This document shows positions 3,014-7,911 of a DNA stretch of 64,000 nucleotides, piece by piece. Each line of letters opens with the position of its first letter. Position 1 is the first letter of the stretch. The notes beneath the pieces are model-generated. The model worked only from the letters and a program-made list of their open reading frames with translations, was not told where the DNA came from and searched no databases. This DNA comes from Candidatus Latescibacterota bacterium. GTDB lineage: Bacteria > Latescibacterota > UBA2968 > GCA-2709665. A program made the translations under genes and the position numbers. Where the stretch lies: NCBI GenBank assembly GCA_965116875.1, contig OZ220733.1, positions 5,088,001 to 5,152,000 on the forward strand, given 5' to 3'.

Positions 3014-3328
3014 CGGTATTGGCGTAACGCTCACACCGGCTGCGGTTCGTACCGTTCGACCTTGATTTTATGTTCTTGCGCCTGCGCGACGTCGCAGACC
3101 GCCGGCAGTCGTCGAACAAGAAGCCCTCGCCAGCCGCACCACCATTACCCTGTGTTCCAGGGTCGCGAACAGGAAGGCATCCCAATTCCGGCAAGATCTA
3201 CATAACGCAGCCACTTCGCGTTTCCAGTCAGCATAACGCATAGGTATCGTCCGTCATTACGTCAGCACGATGTGGATGCGTATTGTTTTCGGTTGACATT
3301 TTGCATTCTAATTGCATATTTTCAAGTC

Positions 3329-4552
3329 ATGCCCCATCACTACATCACGCGATCTCTTGAACCTGTCCTCAGAAAGGCGGCCGGCGAGTTTCCGGCCGTC
3401 ATCCTGACCGGTCCGCGCCAGTCCGGCAAGACAACACTCCTTAAACATCTGTTTCGCGAGCAGTTCCGCTACGTATCCGTAGAGCCACCGGATGTTCGCG
3501 CGGCTGCTACCGAAGACCCTCGAGGATTCCTGGAACTGTATCCCGCGCCGGCGATCTTCGACGAGGTGCAATACGCACCCGATCTGCTCTTCTATATTAA
3601 GGAGAAGATCGACGCAAACCGTAACCGAGCCGGTCAATATCTGTTGACGGGCTCCCAGAATCTGCTGCTCGTCCGGAACATAACCGAGTCGCTTGCGGGT
3701 CGTGCCGCGATTCTCCGACTCTTGCCGCTGTCGAGGCGTGAAGTCGAAGGGCATCCCCAGGCTCCCCTCGTCTGGGAACGCGAAAGCCGGTCATCCGCGA
3801 GTCCGCACTCCGGCTTCGGTGAATTGTGGCAGGAGTTTCTTCGCGGCGGTTATCCGGAACTCGCGACCCAGCCCGACCGGGATGTCTCTCTGTGGCATTC
3901 AAGCTATATTCAGACCTATCTCGAACGGGACGTGCGCGCGCTGCGGCAGGTCGGCGACCTGACTCTGTTTCAGAATTTCCTGCGGGTGCTGGCGGCCCGA
4001 AGCGCCCAGTCGCTGAATCTGTCCGACGTCGCACGCGACCTCGGTGTTGCCGTCAATACGACCAGGGCATGGCTTTCCGTACTCGAAGCCACCTATCAGG
4101 TCATCGTCCTTCGCCCGTACTTCGCCAACATCGGGAAACGGCTTGTCAAGTCACCGAAAGTCTATTTCAGCGACGTTGGGACCCTCTGCCACCTGGTCGG
4201 CCTGAAAGACCCGAACCATGCGGCATCGGGCCCCATGGGCGGTGCGATCATGGAGACCGCGGTACTGTCAGAAATCATACGGACGTTGACCCACCGTGGA
4301 ATAGACGCACGGGTGTATTTCTGGCGAACCCAGGCGGGAACCGAAGTTGATTTCGTGGTTGAAACAGGCGAAGGGCTCGTCCCCATCGAAGTAAAGCTGT
4401 CCGCCACACCCCGCCAGGCCATGGCCAACGCCATCAGGACATTTCAGGATGATTTGAAAACAAGGACCGGACCCGGATTCGTCATACATCCGGGAGACAT
4501 CCGCTTGCCGCTCGCACCGTCGGTTTCCGCCGTACCCTTCGCTGAACTGTAG
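3329..4552 (+). CDS. AAA+ ATPase (AAA_14 + DUF4143)
   Basis: Walker A GPRQSGKTT, Walker B IFDEVQ, LTGSQ, GGYPE, YLERDVR, KSPKVYFSDVG, EVDFVVE...PIEVK. Confidence 0.9.
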   Translation: MPHHYITRSLEPVLRKAAGEFPAVILTGPRQSGKTTLLKHLFREQFRYVSVEPPDVRAAATEDPRGFLELYPAPAIFDEVQYAPDLLFYIKEKIDANRNRAGQYLLTGSQNLLLVRNITESLAGRAAILRLLPLSRREVEGHPQAPLVWERESRSSASPHSGFGELWQEFLRGGYPELATQPDRDVSLWHSSYIQTYLERDVRALRQVGDLTLFQNFLRVLAARSAQSLNLSDVARDLGVAVNTTRAWLSVLEATYQVIVLRPYFANIGKRLVKSPKVYFSDVGTLCHLVGLKDPNHAASGPMGGAIMETAVLSEIIRTLTHRGIDARVYFWRTQAGTEVDFVVETGEGLVPIEVKLSATPRQAMANAIRTFQDDLKTRTGPGFVIHPGDIRLPLAPSVSAVPFAEL

Positions 4553-4658
4553 CCTTCGATTAGCCTCAATATAGAAAAAACCCCGGAAGGGTTGAAAGGA
4601 GCCCCAGAGGAGATGCCGTCTTCGAGGTCTGGACTGTCGAATGCCATTCTTCGGTCGT

Positions 4659-6367
4659 TCAATGATACGCATGCTGAGCGATGGCTTCCACGAATTCAGG
4701 CGCTTCGATTTCTTCGAATCTCTTTTCGATGATTGAGACCGCGCCGGCTTTTTGCCAGGTTTCCCAATGTATCCGGAGGGTCGCGTGCACGTTTTCGGCG
4801 AGCCGGTCAGGCTCCGGGTGGACGATCACGAACCGTCGACCCTCCCTTCCGGCGTACCAATCCATCAACTCGTTGTTGACTCCCCTGTCGCCAAAGCCGT
4901 ATCCGCAAATTACCATTGTGTTCGCCTTTCCAACGGTCGACCTGAAGCAGTCCAGGAGTTCGCGAAATATCCCTGAGCCATCGTTCGAAAGCTTGTTGAA
5001 CGCGCCGATCAGCAGCATCCTCGGGATATCTTCCGCGTACAGAAAGGCGCCGTCAACCTCGATGCGCTGGGGATACAGATCAGGCGGGATGCGTCTGACT
5101 CTCCCGTCCCTGTAGCGGTACCAGTCTATAGAACCACGCAATTTCAGGAACGGAATCTTCACCTCCGATATGAGATCGCCGTTCCAGGGCGAAATGTCAT
5201 CCTCGCCGCCGGCAAACCCGTCGGCGAGCGAAACGTTCCTGTCCTTCAAAAACGCCTCGACGTGGGAATCGTGACAGAGCGTCGATATACAGGTTACGTT
5301 GAAGGCCTTACACGCGGTTTCGACGGCATTTAACCTTGATTCCTCATTTTTCGAGGACGTTAATTCGAATATGTGTCAGTAAAAAAGGCGATTTAACTGC
5401 TGATTACCAGGATACACCAGGACACTGTACGTGAACGGAAAAAATGTCCTTCATGACGACCATTTCGGCCCGTTTCGAAAGGTTTCGTCGCGGTGCCGCG
5501 TTGCGGCTTTTGCGGAATTAAGGTTAACTGGCGGGTGCGGTCCGGTTCGGGCCGGTAAAGCAGAAGGCTTCGCCTCACGACGTCCGCGATGTAGTTGCAC
5601 GTTTCCCCCAACAAGCCGCAAAGGTCGTCCGGAACGCCCGTCCGGGATGAATGTACTGCGGCTTCGCCTCTTGTCACGACTGTTTGGGTGAGTGACAGCC
5701 AGTTGGCCCTCAGCCTTTCCACAAACAGGCGAAGCGCCGGATTCTCCGTCTCGCCCAACTCATCATCCAGCGCCTGCCGCGCGAGGAAGTATATGTCCTC
5801 GTAATTGGCCTTCCGGTCGACGTATGTGGAAAGGTAAGACTCAGCCTCCTCATGAAGTCGCTTCACCATGCCCAGGGGTAATCTTACTTCCGCGGTTTTC
5901 GGTTCTTCGCCGCCGCTGATGTAAAAACACCCGTCGCCGTGCCGGGTAACGCCCCGTCCGGAAACAACCTGGTCGGTGAGGTCCTGCATCGAAGGGAAAC
6001 CGGCCGCTTCCGACGCGCCGGCGCCCAGAAACATGGCGATATTGGTATTCCTGTAGACGCCATGCCCTTCCCGCAGCCTGGGCGGGGGCTGATAGCGTTC
6101 GACCTGAATGCGTTCCTCCTGCCGCCGGGCTTGCAGAAGGTCGTGAGCCGTCTGCCTGCGCAACCAGTACTCGGCATCGGACCACCCGGCCTTCTCCAAT
6201 CGAATCGCCATTTCGGGCGAGATGCCCGCGTGTCCGTTGAGCACCCTGGACAGCGTGTGACGGGCCACGCCCAACACTCTCGCGGCGTCCGTGACGTTGA
6301 GGCAGAGCGGATCGAGCCAGTTCTCGACGATGCTGATACCGGGATGGGGCGGTTTCTCCATAGCCAT
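4659..6367 (-). pseudogene. HigA(HTH)-SIR2-like fusion ORF interrupted by a 190-bp insertion
   Basis: N-terminal PPHPG...[19 protein letters not shown] (HigA), then FLGAGAS (SIR2 NAD loop). After removing 5334-5527 the frame continues through ISTLCHD, LKLRGSIDW and ICGYGFGDRGVN to the stop at 4659. Confidence 0.8.
5334..5523. mobile_element. MITE-like element, 190 bp, TTAA target duplication
   Basis: TTAA at 5330-5333 and 5524-5527; terminal inverted repeats CCTTGATTCCTCA / CCTTAATTCCGCA (11/13); excision restores the reading frame. Confidence 0.85.
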
Positions 6368-6633
6368 GGCACTTACCCCGCGCTGTTTGTGGTAACACCG
6401 CTCGACGCCGTACCGGACGGCATTCGCTTACATCCAAGTCTACTCGTCAATCGACTGATTCACAGCAAGTTACAATCCCGAGAGCTCGGGCCGGGGGAGT
6501 GACTTCGAAGAGTTCCGTCCGACGGAGGGCGCTACGCACGGCATCTCAGGGCGAGGATTATCCGATTATCCGGAATATTACTGTTCTAGACGACATGAGG
6601 GACTACGTTGATAGAGAACGACACACCCCAAAC

Positions 6634-6662: not shown

Positions 6663-6753
6663 GCGGCTTGTCCCTGAGTTCGAATGTGAGAATCACAGCA
6701 GCGACACGCCGTCGGTACGCTGCATTGACCAACATGGCGGGCGAACCAACCGG

Positions 6754-7911
6754 TCAGAAGTCGTCACCGGTCAGGATGTCGAGGTACTCGCGGTACGCAT
6801 AGAACCGGCCGCGCAGCCTCCCCGTGAATTCAGCAAGCACGGCGAGGCTTTCAAGTAATTCAATGGCCTTGCGGGCCGTTGGCGGCGTCATTCCCAGCAA
6901 CTCGCCCACTTTCCGGACGTCGACAACCGGATTGGACGGAAGTAAGTCCAGCAACCGAATTGCGGCGACGGTTGCGTGCTCACTGGCGAGAAGCCGGCGG
7001 CGGTCCCGTGCCACGACGGAATGAAGCGCCTCTGCGACACGAACACCATCCTCGGCGGCGTCACGTACGCACCCCAGAAAATACGTGGACCAGCCTTCCC
7101 AATCACCTTCGTCGCGAACGGCCGTCAACCGCGCGTAGTACTCCTGTTGACTGCGCCTGAACGCGACGCTGAGGTACAGGAGCGGTCGGTCGAGAAGCCC
7201 CCAATGCTCAATCAAAAGCGCGATCAACAACCTGCCGATGCGACCGTTTCCGTCGAGAAACGGATGAATCGTCTCAAATTGTGAGTGCGCAAGTCCAGCC
7301 CGCACCAGCGGCGGAAGATCGCTGTCGACGTGCAACCATCGTTCCAGCGCCGACAGCGCTTCAGGGACCTCTTCAGGCGGCGGCGGGACGAAGTGGGCGT
7401 TACCGGGCCGCGTGCCGCCGATCCAGTTCTGCGACCGGCGTACTTCGCCGGGCCTTTTTCCTTCGCCTCGAACCCCCTGCATCAAAATTCGGTGTGTGTC
7501 GCGAAGCAGGCGGATACCAAGAGGAAGTCCATTCGGGTCCGCGATCTGTTCTCGGGCATGCACAAGCGCCCTTACATAGTTGCAAACCTCACGAACATCG
7601 TCGAGACGTTGGCTCTGGCCGGTGGCTTCAAAAGTAACGACGTCCCGTAACGTGGCCTGCGTCCCTTCAATCCGGGAGGTAATAACCGCTTCCTTGCGCA
7701 CAAATCCGAATAGAAACCATTCGGCGCTGGGCACCATCACGCCCGCGATCCGGAGACGGGCAAGGGCCGCATCCGCCGCGTCGTGAAGTTCGATTGTCCG
7801 ACCGTCAATTGCCAGCGGTGGATCAACCGGCGGGAGCGGGAACGGTACAAACGCTCGAACTTCCTCGCCGAGGGTGCTGACAATTCGATATTGGCCGGTC
7901 ACACGTGGCAT
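6754..7911 (-). CDS. Fic family protein (Fic_N + Fic + C-terminal wHTH)
   Basis: EAVITSRIEGTQ, PGEVRRSQNWIGG and canonical HPFLDGNGRIGR motif. Confidence 0.92.
   Translation of the reverse strand: MPRVTGQYRIVSTLGEEVRAFVPFPLPPVDPPLAIDGRTIELHDAADAALARLRIAGVMVPSAEWFLFGFVRKEAVITSRIEGTQATLRDVVTFEATGQSQRLDDVREVCNYVRALVHAREQIADPNGLPLGIRLLRDTHRILMQGVRGEGKRPGEVRRSQNWIGGTRPGNAHFVPPPPEEVPEALSALERWLHVDSDLPPLVRAGLAHSQFETIHPFLDGNGRIGRLLIALLIEHWGLLDRPLLYLSVAFRRSQQEYYARLTAVRDEGDWEGWSTYFLGCVRDAAEDGVRVAEALHSVVARDRRRLLASEHATVAAIRLLDLLPSNPVVDVRKVGELLGMTPPTARKAIELLESLAVLAEFTGRLRGRFYAYREYLDILTGDDF

Follow-up and report, generated by a model that had tools for sequence, protein, structure and literature searches.

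Two minus-strand open reading frames (ORFs), 5393..6367 (324 amino acids, aa) and 4659..5249 (196 aa, with a TTG start), follow one another in a 64,000-nt stretch of the genome of a Candidatus Latescibacterota bacterium (GenBank assembly GCA_965116875.1, contig OZ220733.1, positions 5,088,001 to 5,152,000; hereafter the window), and they raise the question of whether they are two genes or the remains of one and, if one, what a protein joining a HigA-like helix-turn-helix (HTH) domain to a SIR2-like domain would do. A preliminary description, made from the letters alone, had taken them for one gene split by 194 bases and had proposed a self-regulated NADase module. We found the locus to be a pseudogene, in which a miniature inverted-repeat transposable element (MITE) and a duplication of its TTAA target have been inserted at codon 280/281 of a 504-codon gene. 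The HigA-SIR2 fusion is real, a lineage-specific variant of SIR2 defence-like proteins, and dead in this genome, where the gene copy yields no functional product.

Removal of the 194 bases joined segments of 840 and 675 nt into a frame of 1515 nt, corresponding to 504 codons and a stop. The 5′ piece (codons 1–280; 5528..6367, minus strand) translated into 280 residues with the C-terminal end RTRQ, aligned to residues 1–280 of intact orthologs and contained the HigA HTH, the linker and the N-terminal half of the SIR2-like domain with its GAGxS motif. The 3′ piece (codons 281–504 and stop; 4659..5333, minus strand), with the second half of that domain, translated into 224 residues followed by a stop, with the N-terminal start LNAVETACKAFNVTCISTLCHDSHVEAFLKDRN / LNAVETACKAFNV, and aligned to ortholog residues 281–504. 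The rejoined protein is laid out as an N-terminal HigA HTH, a disordered linker of ~20 residues and a SIR2-like domain of ~400 residues, with the motifs FLGAGAS, TLCHD, LKLRGS and GYGFGD in the order in which they had first been read. Apart from the insertion, both halves were open, each with 88% identity to P0003, the nearest intact ortholog, which suggests that the element probably arrived recently.

The cause of the break had been missed in the preliminary description. Repeat search and copy comparison showed that the 194 bases consist of a 190-bp MITE (5334..5523) with terminal inverted repeats CCTTGATTCC... / ...GGAATTAAGG and a 4-bp target-site duplication, the two TTAA copies lying at 5330..5333 and 5524..5527. 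The empty site in orthologs reads CAGTTGAATGCC or a close variant, and the filled site in this genome reads CAGTTAA-[element]-TTAAATGCC. Searching the genome (5.45 Mb, one contig) with 5330–5531 returned 42 matching places at 78–100% identity (L002–L008 among them), its own site included. All eight copies examined were 190 bp long and had the same YTAA sequence on both sides, TTAA in four and CTAA in four. The element is thus short, non-coding, present in many copies and bounded by terminal inverted repeats and a target-site duplication, as is typical of MITEs. For annotation, the locus illustrates that a gene for a fusion protein can pass for two ordinary ORFs once a MITE has split it.

The N-terminal half matched 16 longer proteins, of which 12 were 500–504 aa long with 65–88% identity over 99–100% of the query and the remaining four shared the HTH only; in one database source, P0009 carries the name ‘HigA family addiction module antidote protein [Candidatus Latescibacteria bacterium]’. 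When the C-terminal half was searched against 40 related genomes, matches were obtained in 11 of 14 genomes of the same genus, in none of seven from other genera of the family and in none of 19 from the neighbouring family; the same-genus genomes without a match to this query were G001, G007 and G009. Ten of the 11 matched genomes carried an uninterrupted frame of 513–533 codons across the MITE site, with no stops. The G013 copy has an internal deletion joining residues 1–101 to 422–500, leaving a 202-aa ORF at ~6682–7290 (minus strand) of locus L020 that consists of the HigA HTH and the C-terminal tail, with the SIR2 core gone. Pairwise ratios of nonsynonymous to synonymous substitution (dN/dS, omega) among orthologs were 0.04–0.18 for the HTH (codons 1–95) and 0.17–0.29 for the SIR2 part (codons 100–504), and both domains are therefore maintained by purifying selection in the same-genus relatives.

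A profile built on the SIR2 part retrieved 2451 proteins at E ≤ 1e-3, including 451 at E ≤ 1e-30, from 1.84 billion cluster representatives. Among the best 150 of these 2451, one alone, P0013 (500 aa), which represents the fusion clade, was matched from residue 100, leaving a 99-residue N-terminal extension; the others were mostly 370–420 aa long and were almost all matched from near their first residues. The 120 best matches of a second search contained an HTH Pfam domain only in P0009, P0011 and P0012, all of the fusion clade. On contigs representing one genome per species, we confirmed 345 relatives and retained 80 loci from many phyla, with the target gene callable in 77; four of the 77, all from the Latescibacterota-type clade, had an N-terminal extension of 107–108 residues. 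In a quick maximum-likelihood tree, the fusion clade was monophyletic (100 in the Shimodaira-Hasegawa-like approximate likelihood ratio test, SH-aLRT) and nested among stand-alone members. Judged by these comparisons, the fusion arose once, from a widespread stand-alone family of SIR2-like proteins of ~400 aa, and is lineage-specific. The impression of an unfamiliar architecture thus held in the sense that the fusion is rare and confined to one lineage; it is not a widespread system.

Seven further loci with N-terminal extensions (L023, L044, L058, L062, L065, L066 and L069) were considered as additional fusions and rejected, as SIR2_2 was their only Pfam match; starts called too far upstream may account for the extensions. 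Separately, the stand-alone members at L040, L043, L077 and L091 looked truncated or split, and in L091 the next ORF again matched SIR2 models, which suggests frequent pseudogenisation of the stand-alone family.

Residues 3–82 of the fusion protein (6122..6361, minus strand) form the HigA-family HTH domain recognised by NCBIfam TIGR02607 and Pfam HTH_3. The TIGR02607 HigA equivalog model scored 82.3 bits on the N-terminal half in the window and 82.7 bits on P0003, against a curated cut-off of 47.7, and was matched over positions 1–80 of 81; HTH_3 reached E = 7e-5 on the window protein, at the Pfam threshold. The domain is therefore as complete as had been claimed, and in 10 relatives it heads a 504-aa protein rather than forming the small stand-alone protein (~100 aa) usual for HigA. 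No HigB-like gene was detected near the locus with PF05015, of which the only two matches in the whole genome lie far away, in agreement with the earlier remark that there is no intact higB upstream, although a very degenerate remnant might escape such a search. The genome holds 10 HigA-like matches, two of which adjoin the two higB genes. At 55% identity, the paralog nearest to the fused HTH is a 114-aa HigA-like gene with no adjacent higB, at genome positions 3810483–3810758 (L104, 1447–1791); upstream of it, on the opposite strand, lies an ORF labelled HicB-like by eye only.

The 200 bp preceding the fusion gene (6368..6567, minus strand) are non-coding and conserved, with 76% mean column identity across 11 genomes, which fits a candidate regulatory region comprising a promoter or operator. 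The upstream regions of the orthologs at L010 and L011 contained no ORF of at least 60 aa on the strand of the gene.

The SIR2 assignment of the remainder was marginal in Pfam, where SIR2_2 (PF13289, cut-off 24.5 bits) gave 19.7 bits for the C-terminal half in the window, 22.7 for P0003 and 27.6 for P0009, and firmer with the PADLOC SIR2 and Aga_SIR2 models (E 1e-13 to 1e-14 on the window gene). Pfam, NCBIfam and PADLOC scans of the fusion protein gave HTH and SIR2 matches only, and a protein atlas returned only SIR2_2 clusters (score 0.79, below lead level). An AlphaFold2 model was computed for P0003, which is 88% identical to each half of the window gene, from a 132-row alignment; this replaced the alignment of the 12 orthologs alone, which had given an unusable model (predicted local distance difference test, pLDDT, 40.6). 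Overall pLDDT was 83.4, mostly above 90 in the SIR2 part, ~50–70 per ten-residue block in the HTH and below 50 in the linker (residues 87–102). The top Foldseek matches of the model were the SIR2 of SIR2-HerA (E = 3e-9), followed by DSR2 and ThsA. Alignment with VIA-align gave Z scores of 23.9 for 8yhx_Q (298 aligned residues, root-mean-square deviation, rmsd, 3.5), 22.8 for 8w9l_A and 21.7 for 8sub_J, and ~15 for sirtuins, ThsA and DSR2. Residues ~100–500 are accordingly modelled as a SIR2 fold closest to the SIR2 of SIR2-HerA systems, and the earlier reservation that the C-terminal part might have no sirtuin fold is answered by Z scores of 21–24. A complex prediction of the HTH (residues 1–95) with the SIR2 part (100–504) scored 0.00, which is uninformative on docking either way.

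The active site departs from that of the family. Across 153 aligned members, the consensus motifs were TLNHD and KLHGS, whose positions correspond to N163, D165 and H212, given as the putative catalytic residues of PsSIR2 in an excerpt of PMC11472057, and the His position aligns with the KLHGS of 8j4u and 8yhx. The Asn position was occupied by N in 121 members, C in 21, S in six and A in five, and the His position by H in 149 and R in two, both of the fusion clade. In the window, the family alignment placed codon 300 (5274..5276, minus strand), a TGT for Cys, at the catalytic Asn position of TxNxD, and codon 346 (5136..5138, minus strand), a CGT for Arg, at the catalytic His position, where it aligns with KLHGS of solved SIR2 chains; the allele thus has neither the catalytic Asn nor the catalytic His of the SIR2 NADases (ThsA, DSR2, SIR2-HerA).

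Both substitutions had been noted at the outset as caveats, TLCHD standing for TxNYD, and both are present. The Cys is not, however, a sign of decay: it is an older trait of the subfamily, because the nearest stand-alone relatives (P0019, P0020, P0021, P0023, P0025, P0027, P0028 and P0031) all carry Cys together with His. The Arg is another matter, the 12 intact orthologs having His in five cases (P0003 and P0004, for example) and Arg in seven (P0005 and P0008, for example; codons CAT versus CGT, CGC or CGA), a pattern that requires at least three changes on the quick tree within one genus. The GAGxS motif (FLGAGAS in the window) was kept in 11 of the 12, and GAGxS, D302 and GYxFxD were mostly retained among orthologs. 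NADase activity, as proposed earlier, is doubtful for the window allele, because its catalytic His is Arg, the fusion clade having moreover lost more family-conserved positions than its stand-alone relatives.

What the intact protein does can be approached through its parts. Among the effectors that deplete NAD+ in bacterial immunity, SIR2 domains rank with the most common, and they are usually paired with a large sensor or a partner ATPase; a SIR2 domain linked to an HTH of the antitoxin type would make a minimal design, with regulation and effector in one chain. Our tentative choice, to which we give somewhat less than an even chance, is that the intact form acts as an accessory module in a single chain, of the defence or toxin-antitoxin (TA) kind. 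The HigA domain, probably dimeric like other HigA proteins, would bind DNA, most likely in the conserved stretch that precedes its own gene, and this binding would determine expression and might also control the enzyme. Where the catalytic His is kept, NAD+ would be bound and consumed by the SIR2 domain; Arg alleles, including the pre-MITE allele of this genome, would probably be catalytically weakened or dead. The Arg substitutions, the G013 deletion, the three genomes without a match and the MITE described here could then reflect repeated loss of a costly function. A bolder form of the proposal, which we consider unlikely, is a fused TA-like immune module whose HTH represses its own gene and restrains a SIR2 NADase until a trigger arrives, with the His/Arg exchange as an on/off toggle. 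Equally novel would be a variant in which a HigA-type transcription factor took over a defence SIR2 as its ligand sensor.

Several findings weigh against a defence or TA-type module. The Asn position held Cys, Ser or Phe in all 12 intact orthologs and never Asn, and P0013 has GSD in place of GAGxS. Fusion members deviated at 1–8 (median 5) of 41 family-conserved positions, compared with a mean of 1.32 and a maximum of 6 in 120 stand-alone members, a comparison in which the 41 positions (at least 90% conserved) were defined on that same stand-alone set and in which two deviations common to all or nearly all fusion members, P385R and L414I, may be an alignment offset and a conservative change. 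By these substitutions, the ancestral catalytic machinery is being relaxed or repurposed in the fusion clade, with the fold still under selection. Purifying selection also persists between pairs of Arg-carrying orthologs (omega ~0.2–0.3), which argues that the SIR2 domain works without the His. On the strand of the gene, a sigma-70 scan found a single promoter-like consensus match upstream, ~270 nt from the start. Finally, 18 of 93 immediate neighbours of stand-alone members matched a PADLOC model at E ≤ 1e-15 and only eight of the 93 were strong and specific (BrxA, two type II restriction endonucleases, PDC-S01, PDC-S02, KwaA, SoFic and PDC-S05), a count that comes without a background rate; the association of the stand-alone family with defence islands is only a hint, and a defence role of the parent family is therefore not established.

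The main rival, possible though in our view doubtful, is a one-component transcription factor in which a non-catalytic SIR2 domain senses NAD+, ADP-ribose or a related nucleotide and so controls DNA binding by the HigA HTH, as in NrtR or NadR. In its favour, the catalytic His looks dispensable, seven of the 12 intact orthologs having Arg there and remaining under purifying selection, the catalytic Asn is gone from every one of them, family-conserved positions are eroded, the HTH is the most conserved part of the protein and the 200 bp upstream are conserved as well. Regulators combining an HTH with a Nudix or WYL sensor are, besides, on record in an excerpt of PMC9503650. A sensor of this kind fits less well with a gene that is patchy and repeatedly lost or broken, and whose neighbours are defence-type or TA-like genes beside coaE, not genes of NAD metabolism; five orthologs, moreover, keep the His, and GAGxS, D302 and GYxFxD mostly survive. 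In close relatives, intact His, intact Arg, deletion and MITE-broken alleles form a natural experiment that could show whether catalysis matters and whether such modules cost enough to be switched off repeatedly.

A DNA-tethered, protein-modifying sirtuin, in which the HTH would recruit a deacylase or ADP-ribosyltransferase to DNA-bound host or phage proteins with no depletion of NAD, seems improbable. The fold is common to true deacylase sirtuins (Z ~15) and the HTH would provide DNA targeting, but the NADase-type SIR2 domains of SIR2-HerA are much the nearest in structure, and most members have Arg in place of the His on which sirtuin chemistry depends.

There is very little to be said for the insert being an assembly artefact, a misplaced repeat in a gene that is intact in the organism. 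The element is indeed highly repeated in the genome, and short-read contigs end inside it. Against this, contigs from the sequencing runs X1 and X2 agree with the left flank at every base and extend 25 bases into the MITE, and another X1 contig enters it from the right flank by 34 bases, all at the exact site, where the TTAA duplication is also exact. X1 is possibly the source sample of the assembly and is therefore not independent, so that only X2 counts as separate support for the insertion. Contig depth in X1 was 357–674 in bins over the MITE and 11.6–13.2 in most flank bins. Contigs from X3 and X4 (public runs labelled sponge metagenome, from two studies) omit exactly these 194 bases and represent somewhat divergent alleles. 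In another part of the gene, at 6228–6339 of the window, contigs from X1, X2 and X4 show a joint that omits 110 bases of the HTH-coding region, with a shorter side of 22 bases; it probably stems from HigA-like paralogs or from other organisms.

The weakest alternative, that higA and a SIR2 gene were originally separate and only appear fused through decay, with the SIR2 gene really starting at an ATG near 6060, can claim that this ATG exists, is preceded by GGAAGGG and that the parent SIR2 family is stand-alone, yet it is already contradicted and practically without credit, since the ATG (placed at 6063 in the preliminary description) is out of frame and of no consequence, the linker being read through in every intact ortholog, 10 relatives have one continuous frame of 500–504 codons with no stop where separate homologs had been envisaged, and purifying selection acts on both parts of a monophyletic fusion clade.

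Comparison with known systems places the protein nearest to the SIR2 of SIR2-HerA (Nezha; 8yhx, 8w9l, 8sub, 8j4u), with which it shares ~300 structurally aligned residues (rmsd 3.2–3.9) including the helical small domain, as well as GAGxS, TxNxD-type, KLHGS and GYxFxD motifs. The sequence relation is weak (E ~0.007–0.01), and unlike SIR2-HerA the gene has no adjacent HerA, being flanked by AAA_14+DUF4143 and Fic genes, while its product adds the N-terminal HigA HTH and, in the window allele, has Cys for Asn and Arg for His. DSR1/DSR2, ThsA, Avs5 and SIR2-APAZ also combine SIR2 with another domain in one chain, but there the partner is a large C-terminal sensor, SLOG, NOD or APAZ rather than a small N-terminal HTH; at 504 aa, the fusion protein also differs from Thoeris ThsA and DSR1/DSR2, which have ~1000 aa with a large C-terminal sensor, or SLOG with ThsB, and no ThsB/TIR or pAgo neighbour was seen at the locus. 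The likeness to HigA of HigBA type II modules extends over the whole of TIGR02607, and canonical HigB-HigA neighbours exist elsewhere in the genome, but here the HTH lacks an adjacent HigB and is fused to an enzyme-like domain of 400 residues.

The coupling of an Xre-type HTH to an NAD+-degrading toxin recalls the RES-Xre systems (MbcT-MbcA, NatT-NatR) treated in an excerpt of PMC9503650. Those systems, unlike the fusion, consist of two genes with a RES toxin (resembling ADP-ribosyltransferases) that is not homologous to the SIR2 domain, and the analogy is one of logic only. In NadR-type regulators, an HTH is fused to an NAD-enzyme domain that serves as sensor. NrtR similarly joins a DNA-binding domain to an NAD/ADP-ribose-binding enzyme fold whose catalytic residues can be dispensable (PMC9503650, in the excerpt). 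Both differ from the fusion in the sensor fold and in adjoining genes of NAD or ADP-ribose metabolism, whereas the fusion gene sits in a variable island of defence type. In the literature covered by term searches, we found only general SIR2, TA and DSR2 papers and none that names an HTH-SIR2 fusion.

The gene belongs to a small island adjoining coaE and hflC. Defence-type neighbours, which the preliminary description had suggested looking for, flank it on both sides: a convergent AAA_14+DUF4143 ATPase matching PADLOC candidate PDC-S01 (3272..4552, plus strand; E = 5e-118) and a Fic_N+Fic protein matching PADLOC SoFic (6754..7911, minus strand; E = 1e-109). The PDC-S01-like ATPase was full length beside the fusion gene in five relatives and fragmentary in three (L017, L018 and L025), with none seen in G008, G010 and G013, and of the relatives examined only G005 had SoFic upstream, as in the window. 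coaE lay nearby in nine of nine relatives with sufficiently long flanks, and island content varied between species of the genus; the island next to coaE behaves as an accessory hotspot that gains and loses genes. Between the two convergent genes, a terminator-like hairpin followed by a T run (4579..4593, minus strand), recognised as a consensus match only, lies ~65 nt past the stop of the fusion gene.

To look for a partner of the stand-alone proteins, we compared 54 upstream genes with Pfam and clustered the neighbours out to ±3. Upstream neighbours included housekeeping genes, integrases, a transposase, a reverse transcriptase, restriction enzymes and small ORFs without a family; the small ORFs (62–100 aa) showed no mutual likeness at BLASTP E 1e-5 and a single Pfam match (HicB, at L037). 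No conserved partner gene emerged across the 77 loci, and no neighbour family extended beyond five. The largest neighbour cluster was AAA_14/DUF4143, at five loci, four of them from the fusion clade. At L068, from a metagenome-assembled genome labelled Hydrogenedentota, an AAA_14+DUF4143 gene resembling PDC-S01 (3799–4998) overlaps by 4 nt a stand-alone SIR2-like gene (4995–6248) on the same strand; these are the same two families that neighbour each other in the window, and the pairing could be due to chance or functional.

The island also includes two plus-strand genes of 170 aa (2101–2613) and 113 aa (2617–2958), 3 nt apart. Neither has a Pfam or NCBIfam match, and the pair is conserved in the island of G010, G011 and G013 at 62–84% identity; its layout gives the impression, and only that, of a toxin-antitoxin pair.

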